From a virus (taxonomy: Duplodnaviria; Heunggongvirae; Uroviricota; Caudoviricetes): a stretch of DNA of 10,401 nucleotides. The translations under genes and the position numbers were made by a program. Where the stretch lies: IMG/VR virus record IMGVR_UViG_2671180770_000023; one strand, given 5' to 3'. Positions 1,189 to 10,401 of this stretch are shown one piece after another. The notes below the pieces were generated by a model, which saw only the letters and a list, made by a program, of their open reading frames with translations, was not told the DNA's origin and made no database searches. Each line of letters starts with the position of its first letter. The first letter of the stretch is position 1.

Positions 1189-1602
1189 TCAGATGGTTTT
1201 CAGTATGCGATCGATGTCGCCGTCATCGCCCTGGTTTCTGCCATCGTATGCCATGCCAGCTGATACGGCTTGCGGGCTGTGCATGTCCATAAAGTTTTCA
1301 AAGGCTGCGGTAAGCTCTGGTGCAACCTTCTGGCGTTCCTGCTCTATGGTCATGCTAAGGATGCTTTTAGCCGTACCAACATCGATACAAGGCACGTTTG
1401 CCATTGCACGCAACAGCGGCTGATAGTCTTTATGCTCATGAAGCGCCATAATCGCATCAGCGCGCGGCTTGTCCTGCTCTTCCAGTTTGTTTAGTTGATA
1501 TACGGCCTCATAGGTTGATAAACCTCTGTCAGCCATTGCCCGCGCTTCGGCTTTAAATTTACTCGCCAGCGGTAGCGTCATGATGCTTTCATTCGTTGCC
1601 AT
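1189..1602 (-). CDS. Hypothetical head-module protein (137 aa), acidic C-terminus
   Basis: Tightly packed after the gpD-like gene. GGGGGA SD 3-4 nt upstream of ATG at 1602. No family recognised; any packaging or connector role is inferred from position only. Confidence 0.6.
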   Translation of the reverse strand: MATNESIMTLPLASKFKAEARAMADRGLSTYEAVYQLNKLEEQDKPRADAIMALHEHKDYQPLLRAMANVPCIDVGTAKSILSMTIEQERQKVAPELTAAFENFMDMHSPQAVSAGMAYDGRNQGDDGDIDRILKTI

Positions 1603-4149: not shown

Positions 4150-4198
4150 ATTTATTTTTACCCCCTCGTTTAAAAAGTTTTGAGTTGTGCCTCCCCTT

Positions 4199-4344
4199 GT
4201 CTACCTTATCTACCTTAGTGGCCCTCATACCAGTAATGGCGCGGCTTTCAGCGGGGTAGAGTGCTTTTATCCAGTATCTACCCCGTGTCTACCTCCCTGT
4301 CTGATTCAGGTAAAATCAGGTAGAGAGGGTAGATAGTGGGTAGA
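4199..4344. repeat. Iteron cluster, putative replication origin
   Basis: Eight copies of a 6-bp core: TCTACC at 4200, 4209, 4277, 4288 and its complement GGTAGA at 4255, 4319, 4328, 4339. Adjacent copies are 9-11 bp apart. AT-rich flanks at 4141-4185 and 4345-4370. Lies directly 3' of the primase gene. Confidence 0.65.
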
Positions 4345-4360
4345 CAGCAATTACAAAAAA

Positions 4361-4855
4361 TTATAAAAACGCGTCGCACTCGTCTGTTGTTATTGCGTTA
4401 GTCTGCGTTACCCCCTTAACTTTCCGCGTAATATATTCATGTCCGTAAACTTTTGCGGCAGGCTTCATAGCCTTGCCAAAGTCATTTACGTTTAGCGGTT
4501 TGCTCCTGCCTGCGTATGCCATAAACGCCAGATAGACGCGGTAAAGGCTGTTCCTGGTCGTGTACTTCACTGAATCGCCACCGCCGCCCATCATCAGGCC
4601 GCGTGCTTCCTCCAGAAAATTCAGGAACTGGCAAAACTCAATAACCGGATCCGTCTGTTGCTTTATTGCCAGAGCTTCATCACCGTCACGCTGTTCCAGT
4701 AGTAAAGCCCGTGCCTTCTCAGGGTCGGTAAAGTTCGCCAGCAATCGGCGGATAATGACAGGGATTTCAGCCGCGATCTTTTCCGGTAGCTCCCTGTCTT
4801 TTTCGGCCTCACTGACGATATTGTCGAAACGGAAAATCACGCGACGACGTGCCAC
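4361..4855 (-). CDS. P4-family primase/helicase, C-terminal segment, out of frame with the upstream segment (164 aa)
   Basis: Begins at a GTG. Sequence (A)RRRVIFRFDNIV...DPVIEFCQFL continues the conserved post-NTPase region expected after ...GVW in this family. Overlaps the upstream ORF by 19 nt in a different frame. Confidence 0.7.
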   Translation of the reverse strand: MARRRVIFRFDNIVSEAEKDRELPEKIAAEIPVIIRRLLANFTDPEKARALLLEQRDGDEALAIKQQTDPVIEFCQFLNFLEEARGLMMGGGGDSVKYTTRNSLYRVYLAFMAYAGRSKPLNVNDFGKAMKPAAKVYGHEYITRKVKGVTQTNAITTDECDAFL

Positions 4856-6108
4856 ACCCCGGCCCGTTCGGTGAATATCATCGGGTTATTGTTGGTCGCC
4901 AGCACCACCGCCCTGATTACAGCCGTGAAACGCTTTTCGTATTTCGGGTTAATTTCCACGGGGTCACCGCCCGTGATTTTCTTGATGCCCGTTCCTTCGC
5001 CTGTATATTTCGGCTGGTCAGCCAGGACGATAAGACGACTCCCGACAACCTGCGCACGTCCACCAGCATCATCAAGCGATGTCATTTCAGCGCTTACCGT
5101 GTTCTGTTTCCCTGCCAGAAGGCTGGCTATGTGCGTGAATGTACTTTTACCGCTCCCGCCGTCTCCGGTGGCCTCAATAAACATCTGCCAGTCGTACCGG
5201 TTCGCCATAATCATGTACAGCGCGGCACATATACGCATCATCTTGCGCGGGTCTTTTCCGGCTGCGTGCTTAAGCCATTTATGAAAGTTTGGCGCGTTAT
5301 CGCGGATGTTCTCCCCTGGTGCTGGTGGCGTGTACTCAATGCCGTTGTGCGTGGTGATCCAGTTCTCCGGCGTGTGCGGGGAAAATTCCCCCGTTTTCAG
5401 GTCAAGCGCACCATTGGCGAACGGCAGCAAATCGCCGGACGGCTCGCCCATTGGTTCGGCAATAACTTTTAACGCTTCCACGGCGTTATTGATTACGCGC
5501 TTGCTGAAAGTGGCCCTGTGCTCTGAATAGATCGCCACCATTTCGCGGCTAAGTTCCATTGTGCTGACCGGACACCATACCCCGCCGCGCCATACGTGAA
5601 CGATTTCACTTTCCTGATGCACACAAACGCCATCAAAGCGCTCGGCAAGCAGCTGCGCGCGCTCACTGTCTGCCATTTGTGCCAGTTGCGTATTTTTCTG
5701 CTCCGGCATGGTAAGCCCTGCGGCAATATTTTCACGCTCAGCATTCAGATAGCGCCGCCAGTTTTCACACTTCTGGACGTGCATTCCTTCGTGGTAAAAA
5801 TTTGCGTCCTGAATATCTGCCGCCGCCAGCTTCTGACCAATCTTTTTGGTCTCCACCAAATCCAGTTCTCCGGCCTGGTACAGCCTTACGCGTTTTTTTC
5901 CATCCGGAACAATTTTCAGTGCATCAAGTTCGGCAAGCTGATTTGGCCCAAGCCACACAGGCGGCACATTATCGCCGGATGCGGGGCCGTCCTGCTCCTG
6001 CCACTGTTTTGCATGTGCCCACGCATCACTACCCGCGAAAATAATTACCTCTGTGTCTTTGTGTTTTATTCCGCGTGGTTGTTTTTTTACGTTCGGTGCC
6101 AGTTTCAT
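4837..6108 (-). CDS. P4-family (D5-like) primase/helicase, N-terminal domain plus P-loop NTPase segment (423 aa)
   Basis: Walker A GDGGSGKST, Walker B-like RLIVLAD and KKITGGDPVEINPKYEKRF motif typical of the phage/plasmid primase P4-family C-terminal domain. AGGGG SD 6 nt upstream. ATG overlaps the upstream stop as ATGA. Confidence 0.8.
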   Translation of the reverse strand: MKLAPNVKKQPRGIKHKDTEVIIFAGSDAWAHAKQWQEQDGPASGDNVPPVWLGPNQLAELDALKIVPDGKKRVRLYQAGELDLVETKKIGQKLAAADIQDANFYHEGMHVQKCENWRRYLNAERENIAAGLTMPEQKNTQLAQMADSERAQLLAERFDGVCVHQESEIVHVWRGGVWCPVSTMELSREMVAIYSEHRATFSKRVINNAVEALKVIAEPMGEPSGDLLPFANGALDLKTGEFSPHTPENWITTHNGIEYTPPAPGENIRDNAPNFHKWLKHAAGKDPRKMMRICAALYMIMANRYDWQMFIEATGDGGSGKSTFTHIASLLAGKQNTVSAEMTSLDDAGGRAQVVGSRLIVLADQPKYTGEGTGIKKITGGDPVEINPKYEKRFTAVIRAVVLATNNNPMIFTERAGVWHVVA

Positions 6109-6404
6109 TTTTTACCCCTGAATACGTTAAGCATCTTTTTTATTTCCTGAATATTGGCGCGTGCTTTCTCCCTGCTGGTTGGTTTACTGCGGGGCGCTGC
6201 CTGTACCAGAGAAAAATCACGCCGAAACTGATAAACAGGCATCACGCAATCATATTCGTAGCCTTCACGACGGTAGGTGATGCGCCGTTCCTCCACGCCC
6301 TTAATCATTACCGTGCCGCCGTACTGGTCGCGGTAAATATCACCGCGCATGAATTTAGTGCGAGTTTTGCCACTGGCAGTTAAGCCAGAATATTTAAGTT
6401 TCAT
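6105..6404 (-). CDS. Hypothetical protein (99 aa), translationally coupled to the primase
   Basis: ORF with GGAG about 10 nt upstream of ATG at 6404. Stop overlaps the primase ATG. No family recognised. Confidence 0.55.
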   Translation of the reverse strand: MKLKYSGLTASGKTRTKFMRGDIYRDQYGGTVMIKGVEERRITYRREGYEYDCVMPVYQFRRDFSLVQAAPRSKPTSREKARANIQEIKKMLNVFRGKK

Positions 6405-6409
6405 TATTT

Positions 6410-6637
6410 TTATTCTCCGGTGTGGGGCGCTTTATTATTCTCGTGAATTGCCATAGCCTTATTGAGTTCATCAATAACAGGTGTCAATAATGTCTGAACA
6501 GCGGCAAACATTAATGATGAATGATCTTCGCCACCTTCCGGCACTTCAATTAATTTAATTAACAACGCATTCATTTCGCGTGCTTTAATTAATGCGTTTT
6601 CAGAGTGGATTAATACTTCAAAATGGATTTTATGCAT
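6410..6637 (-). CDS. Hypothetical small protein (75 aa) in AT-rich patch
   Basis: ATG at 6637 (the track's first M is a GTG at 6640). GGGAG upstream. Overlaps the preceding gene by 8 nt. Confidence 0.45.
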   Translation of the reverse strand: MHKIHFEVLIHSENALIKAREMNALLIKLIEVPEGGEDHSSLMFAAVQTLLTPVIDELNKAMAIHENNKAPHTGE

Positions 6638-6860
6638 CACAAATTTTCTCCCTTATTCTTTTAATGTCCTCATTAAGGATGTCTGTAACTTTTATCAGCG
6701 AGTTTTTGGCAATTATTTTTATTGTTTTAAGTTTTCTTTTGTCGTGCTCCGACTGTGATTTTCTCTCCATAATCTCCACCATGTGGGTAACATCAACGAG
6801 CGCACGTATCAGTATTTGCATTGCTTCTTCTGCTGCGTCCGGTGTGGTTTTATTGCACAT
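6630..6860 (-). CDS. Hypothetical small protein (76 aa) in AT-rich patch
   Basis: Internal ATG at 6860 chosen over the ORF-track start at 6914 because GGAGGGG lies 5 nt upstream and it avoids a 65-nt out-of-frame overlap. Confidence 0.5.
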   Translation of the reverse strand: MCNKTTPDAAEEAMQILIRALVDVTHMVEIMERKSQSEHDKRKLKTIKIIAKNSLIKVTDILNEDIKRIREKICDA

Positions 6861-7080
6861 GTACCCCTCCGCATTTTTTTTCGTTAGAAATAAGCGTTCT
6901 TCTTTCCTGTTCATCGATCAGGAATACGCAGACCTCACCGCTAAGGCGTTTAAGTAAGCCGATGATTGCCCCTGATTCGCTGTCGGTCATCATGCCAGGG
7001 TAATCCTCTGCCAGTGCGCAAATAACTTCGATTTGGTGGGCGCGTTCTGCTGCCTGTTGTAGTGTGATTTCCTGGCTCAT
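6850..7080 (-). CDS. Hypothetical small protein (76 aa)
   Basis: ATG at 7080 overlaps the stop of the Icd-like gene as ATGA. The longer ORF-track version (start 7200) would overlap the Icd-like gene out of frame. Confidence 0.5.
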   Translation of the reverse strand: MSQEITLQQAAERAHQIEVICALAEDYPGMMTDSESGAIIGLLKRLSGEVCVFLIDEQERRTLISNEKKCGGVHVQ

Positions 7081-7244
7081 AAGCCTACCCCCTGACGAAT
7101 ACGGGCGACAAAAATCAGATGTGCGTGCGGCAGCTGGGCGCGGGCTTCGCGTTCTGTTGCTGCCGTGACGGTAAAGAGTGATGTTTGTTTTTCCTGGCAC
7201 TGCATAAAGCGCCAGACAAAGTAAGGGCGTGCGGATACAGCCAT
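7077..7244 (-). CDS. Icd-like / Ash-family-like small protein, copy 1 (55 aa)
   Basis: Motif VWRF...TEREAR...FVARIRQG. TAGGAGCC SD 8 nt upstream of ATG at 7244. Family call is from recalled motif, not a search. The frame stays open upstream to 7580 (see findings). Confidence 0.5.
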   Translation of the reverse strand: MAVSARPYFVWRFMQCQEKQTSLFTVTAATEREARAQLPHAHLIFVARIRQGVGL

Positions 7245-7530
7245 GTGAAAGGCTCCTACAGTAATTTTAAGGAGTCTCGCTACTACGCTGCTAAACGGGG
7301 TGGCGAGACGTAACAGGGTTAGCAGACTGGCACTGTAGGAACCAGCGAGCGCAAAGGCTCCCCCGTTACGCCCCGCCATAATGCGGGTATGGGTAGGCTT
7401 ACGGACACAAAAAAACCGCATATCGGAATATAAGCGGCTGTCCGCTACAGTATTCAGGCTGCTAAACCCGGTCGCCATGTGGGCGACGGGGGAAGCATAC
7501 AGCCCCGTTATAATTTTTTGCAAGCGGTTT

Positions 7531-7728
7531 TTACGCATGATGTGACCCCTGACGAATACGGGCGGCGAATACAGCAACACAACCGGACGGGCAACGGCTA
7601 CGCGCTTCGCGTTCCGTCCAGGCGGTTACGTGGATGATTTGAGATTCTCCGGCACTCAGTGCCAGAAAACGCCACACAAAGGCCGTTTGTGTGTGTACAA
7701 GGTGTGGTATATGATTTACAGCAACCAT
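7531..7728 (-). CDS. Icd-like / Ash-family-like small protein, copy 2 (65 aa)
   Basis: Motif VWRF...TEREAR...FAARIRQG, paralogous to copy 1. CTAGGAGCC SD 5 nt upstream of ATG at 7728. Confidence 0.5.
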   Translation of the reverse strand: MVAVNHIPHLVHTQTAFVWRFLALSAGESQIIHVTAWTEREARSRCPSGCVAVFAARIRQGSHHA

Positions 7729-7897
7729 AACGGCTCCTAGTTTACGTTGTTGGTTAGAAGCCCTGCGAGTGGTAACGACACTTGCGGGGCTTTGTCTTTT
7801 CATCGATTACCTTGATAAAGGTGTCAGCCACGTCAATAGTGTTTTTCCGTTTTCTTGTGTGTATACTGTCAGCCACCTAATAACGAGGAAATCAGAT
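7729..7897. promoter_or_regulatory. Divergent intergenic control region between the leftward early operon and the rightward small-gene pair
   Basis: Plus-strand -10-like TATACT (7862-7867) upstream of the RBS GAGGA (7884-7888). Direct 10-bp repeats TGTCAGCCAC at 7822-7831 and 7867-7876. I could not find a convincing -35/-10 pair for the leftward operon. Confidence 0.45.
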
Positions 7898-8077
7898 ATG
7901 GCAACAAAAGCAGTTAATGCAAAATCCAAAAAGCTTGAGGCTCGAGTACCTCACGCAATAGCTGATGCTGTAGAAAATTTAAAGGAAGATGGCGAAAGTA
8001 CAGGGCAATTTATCGTTTCGGCACTTGAAGGCGAGATCAAACGCCGCCAGCGCCGCAAGGCCAAAGAATCAGAATAA
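7898..8077 (+). CDS. Small DNA-binding protein, probable ribbon-helix-helix (Arc/CopG-like) regulator (59 aa)
   Basis: Internal ATG with GAGGA SD 9 nt upstream, preferred over the SD-less start at 7769. KLEARVPHAIADAVENLKEDGESTGQFIVSALE fits a strand-helix-helix pattern. Basic C-terminal tail. Confidence 0.55.
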   Translation: MATKAVNAKSKKLEARVPHAIADAVENLKEDGESTGQFIVSALEGEIKRRQRRKAKESE

Positions 8078-8456: not shown

Positions 8457-8663
8457 TTAAGCAGCCGTTCCGCGTGCTTCCTGTTCGCGTTCTTTCTGCC
8501 AGGCCAACACATCATCCTCATACCATCCGCGACGGCGTAAACCAACGCGAAAACCCTGCGGAAATTCTCCGGCGTTGATCATGCTTTGCAGCGTGCTGTC
8601 TGCCTTGCTGTGGATAATTTTTTTTACTTCCTGGCGAAAGATAATTTTTCTGATTGCTTCCAT
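8457..8663 (-). CDS. alpA: AlpA-family phage regulatory protein (68 aa)
   Basis: STLQSMINAGEFPQGFRVGLRRRGWYEDDVLAWQKER matches the AlpA / prophage CP4-57 regulator pattern (recalled AlpA: ATIYDWLNPKSPRYDATFPKKRMLGVKSVGWIEAEIDEWLSQR). AAGG 8 nt upstream of ATG at 8663. Confidence 0.8.
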   Translation of the reverse strand: MEAIRKIIFRQEVKKIIHSKADSTLQSMINAGEFPQGFRVGLRRRGWYEDDVLAWQKEREQEARGTAA

Positions 8664-9159: not shown

Positions 9160-10401
9160 CTACACGGCTCGGATACCCCTTTTACCACTGGCGAGGGTTA
9201 CGCCCGTCGCCGCAGCCTCGACAAATTCGCCCCACCAGCGCATCAGCACGATGCGTTTTTCTATGTAGTTGCTCCGGTTGTATGCCCGTCTAACTTCGTT
9301 GGTGTCGACGTGGGCAAGTGCCGCCTCTATTACGTCCGGCTCGAATCCTTCCTCGTTCGCTGCTGTGCTGAATATGGCGCGTAATCCATGAGACACCAGC
9401 ACGCCAGCGAATCCCATACGCCGCAATGCTGCGTTAGCTGTCTGGCTGTTCATCGGCTGCTGTGGGTCTTTCAGACTTGGGAAAACGTAATTGCGGTGGT
9501 GGCTGATTGGTTTCATGGCCTCCAGCACCGCCATAGCCTGACCGGAAAGCGGGATAACGTGATCCCTGCGCATCTTCATGCGTCCGGCAGGTATCGTCCA
9601 TTGCTTCGCGTCCAGGTTGATTTCATCCCACCGCGTTGATGACGCTTCGGCGGGACGGGTTACGGTCAGTAACTGCCATTCAATCAGTAATCTGGTCTGC
9701 CGTTCTGTTGCCGATACTGATAAAGCCTGCATAAGCTCCGGCAGCTGTTCGGGGCGGATTGTTGGCATATGTTTTTTTACAGGTGAGGGAAACGCCTTAC
9801 GCACATTCATAGCCGGATTGGCATCAATCAGCCCACTGTTGGCGGCGTAATCCATTACCTCATTAACGCGCTGTAAAACCCGCTTGAGTGTTTCCAGGTT
9901 GCCGCGCTCCTTGATGGGGGTAAGCACTTCAACGAACCTTCGGGCGGTGAGGGTATCTATTGGCGTGTTGCCGATGAACGGGAATACATATTTATCCAGC
10001 GAACGCCAGATGTCTTTAATCGTGTTGGGGGCCAGATTCTGGCTGATTTTCACCTGGTACCATGCCGCCGCCACATTTTCGAACGTGTTCCCTTGTCTTC
10101 GGGCCTCTGTCTCTCTTTTTTGCCTCTCGTGGTCCTGCGGGTCAGTTCCGGCACTGATTAACGTCCTGTACTCGCTACGGCGTTTTCTGGCATCAGCCAG
10201 GGAAACATCTTCAAGCGATCCAAAACTCAGCAATATTCTTTTTTTGTCCGATGGTCGGTAGTAGGAAAATCTCCAGAGTTTTGATCCAGACGGTTTGACC
10301 AGGAGAAAAAGCCCTCCGCCGTCCTGCAGGGTGTACTCCTTTTGCGCTGGTCTGGCTGCTTTGATCTGCACTGTGGTTAATGGGTGTGTTTTTCTCGCCA
10401 T
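9160..10401 (-). CDS. int: Tyrosine recombinase, P4-type integrase (413 aa)
   Basis: N-terminal arm-binding-like region (GGGLFLLVKPSGSKLWRFSYY...) typical of P4-like integrases. Catalytic H-x-x-R (HGLRAIF) and C-terminal Tyr region (RAYNRSNYIEKR). ATG is the last three bases of the window. Confidence 0.9.
   Translation of the reverse strand: MARKTHPLTTVQIKAARPAQKEYTLQDGGGLFLLVKPSGSKLWRFSYYRPSDKKRILLSFGSLEDVSLADARKRRSEYRTLISAGTDPQDHERQKRETEARRQGNTFENVAAAWYQVKISQNLAPNTIKDIWRSLDKYVFPFIGNTPIDTLTARRFVEVLTPIKERGNLETLKRVLQRVNEVMDYAANSGLIDANPAMNVRKAFPSPVKKHMPTIRPEQLPELMQALSVSATERQTRLLIEWQLLTVTRPAEASSTRWDEINLDAKQWTIPAGRMKMRRDHVIPLSGQAMAVLEAMKPISHHRNYVFPSLKDPQQPMNSQTANAALRRMGFAGVLVSHGLRAIFSTAANEEGFEPDVIEAALAHVDTNEVRRAYNRSNYIEKRIVLMRWWGEFVEAAATGVTLASGKRGIRAV

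Follow-up and report, generated by a model that had tools for sequence, protein, structure and literature searches.

Three small overlapping open reading frames (ORFs), here called A, B and C, occupy positions 6410 to 7080 of a 10,401-nt stretch of viral DNA (Caudoviricetes; IMG/VR record IMGVR_UViG_2671180770_000023; the whole stretch is referred to as the window). The window represents an EcCICFT073-family phage-inducible chromosomal island (PICI), and A, B and C are protein-coding genes of its early (replication) operon, where they form part of a chain downstream of a P4/P1-type immunity module. Judging from sequence and from analogy with characterized systems, an RNA switch probably controls their joint expression with the cell-division inhibitor Icd and the replicase. 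The best explanation overall, to which we assign a probability of roughly 45%, is that they are RNA-gated, coupled early genes encoding small binding proteins for host or helper targets.

The assignment of the window to this island family rests on an integrase, an AlpA-type regulator, a primase, lambda-type capsid and decoration genes and an Rpp-like gene, present in the same order as in EcCICFT073-type PICIs. The island falls into the size class of approximately 10-12 kb and matches the CFT073 locus and the related island L002 gene for gene when ORFs and Pfam domains are compared. The layout of the window is also matched by a near-identical island from strain 300033.

A, B and C in the coupled chain

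The genes of the coupled chain, in order, are:

7077-7244, minus strand: Icd-like ORF of 55 amino acids (aa), within a longer ORF (7580-7077); ATG at 7244, Shine-Dalgarno sequence AGGAG; NCBIfam NF033153, E = 2.4e-15
7080 to 6850, minus strand: ORF A, 76 aa, acidic (isoelectric point, pI, 4.8), G+C content (GC) 0.48; first gene after the Icd-like ORF
6860 to 6630, minus strand: ORF B, 76 aa, basic (pI 8.6), Shine-Dalgarno sequence GGAGGGG; AT-rich allele
6637 to 6410, minus strand: ORF C, 75 aa from its ATG, acidic (pI 5.6); AT-rich allele
6105-6404, minus strand: DUF4222 gene, 99 aa; Pfam PF13973, E = 6e-24; conserved downstream border of the slot, i.e., of the space between the Icd-like ORF and this gene
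4361-6108, minus strand: D5-type primase (Pfam D5_N, DUF5906, Pox_D5); last link of the chain

At the junctions of the chain each start codon overlaps or abuts the preceding stop codon, with a G-rich Shine-Dalgarno sequence located within the last codons of the preceding gene. The ATG of ORF A (7080) overlaps the TGA of the Icd-like ORF (7079-7077) as ATGA, A and B overlap by 11 nt (ATGTGCAATAA), B and C overlap by 8 nt (ATGCATAA), the Shine-Dalgarno sequence for DUF4222 is contained in the final codons of ORF C (HTGE), and the DUF4222 stop and primase start again overlap as ATGA. An alternative GTG start for ORF C is located at 6640. RefSeq has the same three coding sequences annotated in near-identical loci, which together with the coordinates agrees with the first-pass annotation of this DNA, in which three chained ORFs of 75-76 aa with overlapping stops and starts and Shine-Dalgarno sites had been described. 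The layout likewise confirmed that they belong to the early operon, with the regulatory module on one side and the replicase on the other.

The alleles of C displayed Nei-Gojobori ratios of nonsynonymous to synonymous substitution (dN/dS) of 0.16-0.27 (one near-identical pair excepted) with dS of up to 0.95, and those of B displayed ratios of 0.35-0.39. B and C are therefore considered coding due to purifying selection, and ORF A, for which the differences were too few for a dN/dS test, is considered coding due to its wide conservation. A plus-strand ORF of 121 aa (6592-6957) overlaps both B and C and was taken as an antisense by-product of AT-rich sequence, since it is the minus-strand frames that show the signal of selection.

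The C4-type RNA upstream of the chain and its proposed role as a switch

Upstream of ORF A the following regulatory elements and candidate elements were noted:

7296-7383, minus strand: C4-type antisense RNA (Rfam RF01695, 71.5 bits compared to a gathering score of 45; full length, 1-87)
7254-7262, minus strand: target of the C4 loop (ACUGUAGGA), overlapping the Shine-Dalgarno sequence of the Icd-like ORF (ATG 7244)
7451-7500, minus strand: candidate upstream a1/b1-type C4 target (RF03163, 45.5 bits, slightly short of its gathering score, 46.7)
7409-7487, minus strand: isrK-like terminator hairpin (RF01394, 35.7 bits compared to a gathering score of 50), overlapping the a1/b1-type target

The loop of the C4 RNA (7340-7332; UCCUACAGU) pairs over 9/9 nt with 7262-7254 (ACUGUAGGA). 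Loop and target covary in the same register across six pairs (the window, the related loci L003, L007, L014 and L020/L021, and P4), which span PICIs, P4 and islands of other genera. Going by these sequences, the pairs may represent different immunity specificities of the kind that separates P1 from P7; no description of such covariation for PICIs was found in the literature searched. The a1/b1-type and isrK-like elements reach their gathering scores in related loci, RF03163 doing so in L003, L020 and L021. In RefSeq this Icd-like ORF, the second of a tandem pair, is given a long form of approximately 153 aa (7077-7580, minus strand) that contains the C4 RNA gene. The 55-aa form starting from 7244, with a Shine-Dalgarno sequence of its own, seems the more likely product.

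In a resident island the C4 RNA would block the Icd-like ORF and, with the coupling lost, the ORFs downstream of it would be silent. A, B, C, the DUF4222 protein and the primase would then be made together, and only upon induction of the island. The immI region of P1 (c4-icd-ant) follows a corresponding logic of RNA, short ORF and AUGA junction. In Gifsy-1 (isrK-orf45-anrP) a C4/IsrK-type RNA controls the translation of a short ORF whose stop overlaps the next start as AUGA, and translation of this ORF behind IsrK is needed for expression of the gene coupled to it (PMC4825925). The window has an ATGA at the junction of the Icd-like ORF and A, as in P1 and Gifsy-1. In those two systems, however, the downstream gene encodes a large anti-repressor, whereas in the window a chain of predicted hairpin proteins of 75-76 residues follows and then the replicase.

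The left operon of P4 is similarly built, with an AlpA/Vis-type helix-turn-helix gene, a C4-family RNA inside an Ash/Icd-like ORF, small genes and a primase, arranged as vis (orf88), the CI RNA inside the 'cI' ORF, epsilon, orf151, orf106 and the alpha primase. RF01695 scores 74.9 bits in P4 compared to 71.5 bits in the window, the P4 'cI' ORF and the Icd-like ORFs of the window share phrog_1743, and the register in which the P4 loop and target covary is common to the window. P4 epsilon (8175-7888) overlaps the end of the 'cI' ORF (8168), as ORF A overlaps the stop of the Icd-like ORF. The small genes themselves are unrelated, A, B and C being neither epsilon (PF25738) nor orf151 nor DUF5375 by BLASTP of all slot proteins and by profiles; BLASTP of the slot proteins against P4 epsilon, orf151, orf106 and the cI ORF returned nothing significant. 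The replicase also differs (alpha in P4 compared to the D5-type primase in the window), as do the packaging genes (sid, delta and psu compared to the lambda-type capsid and Rpp module of PICIs). ORF A occupies the epsilon position and lies outside the epsilon family.

Content of the slot across E. coli

The flanks of the slot (Icd-like ORF and DUF4222) are present in 1316 of 5426 complete E. coli genomes, about a quarter, five of which hold most of a 1.6-kb query. Between these flanks related E. coli islands carry 1-5 small ORFs. In an all-against-all comparison they fell into four families (A, B, C and D), with a 121-aa gene occasionally present as well. A survey of 79 loci used profiles built in this analysis. 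In all surveyed E. coli loci that carry A, the order is Icd-like ORF, A, B, optionally D, C and DUF4222, followed by a D5-type primase or a RepA helicase, and the fixed order A-B-(D)-C spans both PICI and capsid-forming PICI (cf-PICI) loci, including EcCICFT073. The trio of the window occurs in a lambda-capsid PICI and in a cf-PICI with HK97-type head genes. In a few islands, which lack A, or A and B, the Icd-like ORF is directly followed by B or C.

The block of Icd, A, B, C and DUF4222 is approximately 94% identical between E. coli E110019 (L001) and L002 or the window. The former has a RepA helicase and HK97-type head genes and the latter two have a D5-type primase and lambda-type capsid genes. 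As the block is common to islands with different replicase and head genes, this early regulatory block moves as a module between satellite types. The first-pass annotation had called the slot a typical cargo site. This stands insofar as the content varies and the site is syntenic with the epsilon region of P4, and does not stand in that the slot holds recurrent families in a fixed order rather than a compositionally marked insert.

The AT-rich patch as a haplotype of B and C

The first-pass annotation also described an AT-rich patch carrying all three ORFs and proposed that windowed GC and codon usage be calculated. GC was 0.375 over 6410-6860, the lowest of the window and approximately 3.7 standard deviations below the mean of 451-bp non-overlapping windows (mean 0.504, standard deviation 0.035, minimum 0.424). 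The patch is thus real over a narrower range. GC and GC at third codon positions (GC3) were 0.377 and 0.40 in B and 0.368 and 0.33 in C, whereas the GC of A (0.481) is ordinary for the window, and the compositionally distinct patch therefore consists of two of the three ORFs, B and C.

When the window was compared by blastn to islands with alternative alleles (L003, L006, L007, L009), DNA similarity ended at approximately 6435 and returned at approximately 6830, giving an allele-block core of 6435-6830 with breakpoints inside the last codons of C and the first ten codons of B. The AT-rich B allele (B-AT) was accompanied by a 75-aa AT-rich C allele (C-AT), and never by D, at 11/11 loci, and all alternative B alleles were paired with a 77-aa C allele (GC 0.38-0.42). 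The common alternative C allele, with a GC of 0.40-0.41, is thus itself rather AT-rich. The AT-rich patch is one haplotype (B-AT plus C-AT) of two polymorphic gene families. B-AT was found in 43 of the 5426 complete E. coli genomes, C-AT-like alleles in 195 and the full trio in 3. EcCICFT073 of E. coli CFT073, the model Gram-negative PICI, is of the same island family and layout and has an ORF A with 99.6% DNA identity. In its slot, A is followed by an alternative B allele, then by D and an alternative C allele, the order being unchanged, and the window differs by carrying the rarer AT-rich alleles of B and C and by lacking D.

Gains and losses of genes fall exactly at junctions (6640|7087 and 6855|7088), and the junctions of the slot share a G-rich Shine-Dalgarno sequence followed by an ATG with overlapping stop. 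Two chimeras were observed, one joining the first 22 residues of A to the body of B (P0211) and one fusing B and D into a 145-aa ORF (L007, 2061-2498). Both are consistent with recombination between the short genes of the slot. Through recombination in the conserved gene junctions the haplotype would be exchanged as a unit, and such allelic replacement of B and C would change target specificity.

Relatives beyond E. coli

An exhaustive profile-free search returned relatives of A with 34-54% identity. Such relatives are known from Serratia, Erwinia, Salmonella, Pantoea, Yersinia, Pluralibacter, Pseudomonas, the Salmonella phage Fels-1 and Klebsiella phages, and they are common in Salmonella. 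In satellites of other Enterobacterales (Erwinia, Serratia, Pluralibacter, Yersinia, Pantoea) and of one Pseudomonas they stand in arrays of small ORFs, commonly upstream of P4-alpha-type primases. Iterated profiles identified C-type and D-type genes adjoining A in these array loci, three of which have C4 RNAs. Relatives of A, C and D accompany three different replicase types (D5-type primase, RepA helicase, P4-alpha primase).

In Fels-1 (L025, 3495-3871) a relative of A belongs to the leftward early operon, where only one ORF separates it from the repressor gene, with a C-type gene directly behind it by iterated profile, and a Klebsiella temperate phage (L026, 3495-3683) has an A relative at the same position of its leftward early operon. 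No match to the A and C region of Fels-1 was obtained in E. coli genomes by a distant blastn comparison. The presence of relatives in these temperate phages shows that the families are not satellite-specific. By tblastn against 50,697 phage records no match was found for B or C, and by this kind of search A alone has phage relatives. The resemblance to the lambdoid pL operon, with A and C relatives side by side in the early-left region of Fels-1 and A in Klebsiella phages, is a positional comparison without sequence link to the characterized lambda genes there. With the A-B-(D)-C order fixed, and with A, C and D all having relatives outside E. coli, including some in temperate phages, the three genes come close to the ordinary conserved satellite genes that the first-pass annotation had set against its own reading of them as cargo.

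Protein families and predicted structures

The three proteins were assigned to PHROGs families, all of unknown function: A to phrog_1478 (E = 8e-29), B to phrog_5146 (4.5e-8) and C to phrog_2196 (5.5e-10). A was found in 261 of the 5426 complete E. coli genomes, about 5%, and at 95% identity or more in 260, and is nearly invariant in this species; its carriers include CFT073 and Nissle 1917. The B family comprises 264 clusters, of which those with a named source come almost entirely from Escherichia and Shigella, and is highly polymorphic, with a conserved N-terminus and a mosaic remainder. The C family comprises 668 clusters. The proteins A, C and D, as well as the alternative allele of B, have pI values between 4.4 and 5.6.

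AlphaFold2 modeled B with helices at 7-34 and 38-75 and C with helices at 2-31 and 38-69, both at a predicted local distance difference test score (pLDDT) of 85. B and C are accordingly predicted to be two-helix hairpins of long antiparallel helices.

Tandem paralogy of A, B and C was considered and found no support in hhalign with the first alignments, which gave nothing significant. With wider alignments hhalign gave a local match of A to C in register (P = 8e-4, probability 24%) and of B to D (P = 1.4e-3, 18%), and three ORFs were matched by both the iterated A and the iterated C profiles. These sequence comparisons are at most suggestive of a distant relationship between A and C.

Candidate functions of the slot proteins

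As predicted two-helix hairpins of approximately 75 residues without catalytic features, the proteins would most likely act by binding other proteins. A, B and C would act on host or helper-phage targets in the induced cycle, beside the cell-division inhibitor Icd. Such targets are more likely than a partnership with the island's own replicase, because relatives adjoin three unrelated replicases and occur in ordinary temperate phages. In E. coli ECOR61 a phage accessory gene is reported to trigger a growth arrest. Tn5 insertions that relieved it mapped to an Icd-like gene and to the pair of small, overlapping ORFs immediately behind this gene, and the effect was rebuilt only with six linked genes including a primase (bioRxiv 10.1101/2023.04.06.535777). 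This gene arrangement fits the operon of the window as a likeness of layout only.

Several points weigh against a binding role toward host or helper. A, B and C are without homology to any protein of known function in the searches made here. None matched Pfam, NCBIfam or PADLOC (Pfam and PADLOC at E ≤ 0.1, PADLOC at this threshold also giving no match for DUF4222 or the Icd-like ORFs), profile searches of the PDB with the three families gave chance or designed-protein matches only, and Foldseek of the B and C models against the PDB, and of C against BFVD, gave none at E ≤ 0.001, its top matches being generic hairpins (encapsulated ferritins, fusion cores, designed bundles). The statement of the first-pass annotation that none of the proteins was recognizable thus held through the profile and structure searches it had proposed, no family or fold of known function being matched and the PHROGs hits being to families of unknown function. 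In addition, we infer the C4 block and the translational coupling from sequence and from P1, P4 and Gifsy-1. Some loci lack A (L005, L010, L023) or both A and B (L004, L024) and therefore no single member is indispensable, and the linkage of the B and C alleles, though perfect, may reflect adjacency alone. Finally, the small ORFs of ECOR61 may belong to other families, and the Tn5 insertions there could act via polarity on the downstream primase.

At rather long odds, the Icd-like ORF together with A, B, D and C may make up one effector module of polymorphic specificity. Phage-triggered release from C4 would in that case permit translation of the entire chain, the hairpin proteins would join Icd in bringing about growth arrest or helper capture, a swap of B and C would retarget the module to other helper or host partners, and arrest of the ECOR61 type would be included. 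Within such a module a four-helix bundle may form from B together with C.

Helper derepression is unlikely. In this explanation at least one of the proteins, most of all A, would be an anti-repressor that binds the repressor of a resident helper prophage and so induces the prophage, as P4 epsilon does with the P2 C repressor. The position of A fits, as it starts at the ATGA of the Icd-like ORF. The gene located at the icd stop in P1 (c4-icd-ant) encodes an anti-repressor. P4 and Gifsy-1 (isrK-orf45-anrP; PMC4825925) likewise have an anti-repressor gene that begins where the short ORF following the C4/IsrK-type RNA ends. The high allelic diversity of B is also as expected for a specificity determinant. 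However, the Pfam family 'Derepression' (PF25738) matched P4 epsilon at 9.2e-51 and none of A, B or C at E ≤ 0.1, and the best BLASTP match of these proteins to P4 epsilon had an E of 0.68. A itself is nearly invariant in E. coli, unlike a protein that tracks diverse repressors, and in some islands it is B or C, not A, that stands directly behind Icd. Relatives of A also occur in ordinary temperate phages, which need no helper, and Gram-negative PICIs are described as helper-induced rather than as inducing the helper (PMC6092414, PMC11773190).

A role in replication control, with the hairpin proteins modulating the island's own replicase or origin in the manner of P4 Cnr (orf106), a copy-number limiter encoded immediately ahead of the alpha primase, is no more probable. 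A, B and C are directly upstream of DUF4222 and the primase and translationally chained to both, and P4 has small genes at the corresponding place, namely orf151, whose N-terminus is weakly similar to DUF4222 (E = 0.014 in a five-protein database), and orf106, which we take to be Cnr. Yet the replicases found next to these families are of three unrelated types (D5-type primase, RepA helicase and P4-alpha primase), family members in Fels-1 and the Klebsiella phages are in early-left operons far from such replicases, and none of A, B and C resembles DUF5375, to which the P4 orf106 protein belongs.

Equally doubtful is an anti-defense function, in which the proteins would counteract host immunity much as small, acidic, helical anti-CRISPR or anti-restriction inhibitors do and shield both the incoming or replicating island and its helper. 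Their small size, their presumed early expression and the mostly acidic pI (4.4-5.6, window B excepted) would suit such inhibitors, as would the rapid and mosaic allelic turnover of B. Relatives of A and C are located in the early-left accessory region of temperate phages, and in lambda both ral and gam lie in the early-left region. On the other hand, no known inhibitor was matched by sequence or fold (PADLOC holds defense systems, not counter-defense proteins), the B allele of the window is basic (pI 8.6), and A is almost invariant across E. coli.

It is highly improbable that the patch is a non-coding element (replication origin, H-NS silencing site or internal promoter) with incidental ORFs, as its low GC, a few short palindromes (e.g., TTAATTAA) and two weak promoter-like plus-strand matches within 6367-6491 are set against minus-strand frames under purifying selection, ORFs and junctions conserved across divergent alleles, and a number of promoter-like matches (5) that equals the expectation from shuffled sequence (4.7 +/- 2.6).

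Other features of the island

The remaining annotated genes of the island are:

9160-10401, minus strand: tyrosine integrase
8457-8663, minus strand: AlpA-type helix-turn-helix gene
7531-7803, minus strand: first of the tandem pair of Icd-like ORFs
further minus-strand genes: SSB, lambda-E-type major capsid, decoration and a Nu1-like ORF

The Rpp label of the ORF at 439-981 is putative and based on position. Between the AlpA-type gene and the Icd-like ORFs, on the plus strand and opposite to the early operon, is a YlcI/YnfO-family gene (7895-8077) with a weak match to Arc-like repressors (E = 0.092), which may belong to the island's switch. A 137-aa ORF after the decoration gene (1189-1602, minus strand) has a strong match to phrog_1999 and a weak one to the C-terminal end of the head maturation protease family phrog_53 (6e-9), and could represent a remnant within the capsid module, either scaffold-like or derived from a protease.

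The primase carries a 1-nt deletion near 4859, where one A is missing in CGGGCCGG[A]GGTG compared to the intact 584-aa gene of the 96%-identical island L002. This yields split ORFs of 423 and 164 aa and reflects either a defective island or a sequencing error. Downstream of the primase, direct and inverted copies of a GTCTACC / TATCTACC motif are located in the non-coding gap at 4190-4345. These repeats are probably the iteron-type replication origin of the island, and PICI origins have been described downstream of the primase (PMC6092414). The AT-rich patch was also considered as a site for a replication origin and rejected, as it holds no iteron arrays and the GTCTACC iterons are at 4190-4345 instead.

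Significance

RNA-gated early operons of the P4/P1 type, in which small genes are coupled, are a known kind of system and no new kind is revealed here. The specific families are uncharacterized. No function was found assigned to these genes in the literature searched, although they are present in the best-studied Gram-negative PICI; the published work on EcCICFT073 consulted here tested the genes after the origin (Rpp), not A, B or C (PMC6739421). The cargo interpretation of the first-pass annotation is partly supported; the searches made here identified no helper derepression, anti-defense or interference function. The analysis defines families A, B, C and D, provides a two-haplotype system suited to allele swaps and offers a testable regulatory model. 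If a role directed at the host or helper is true, A, B and C would be part of how satellites take over the cell.

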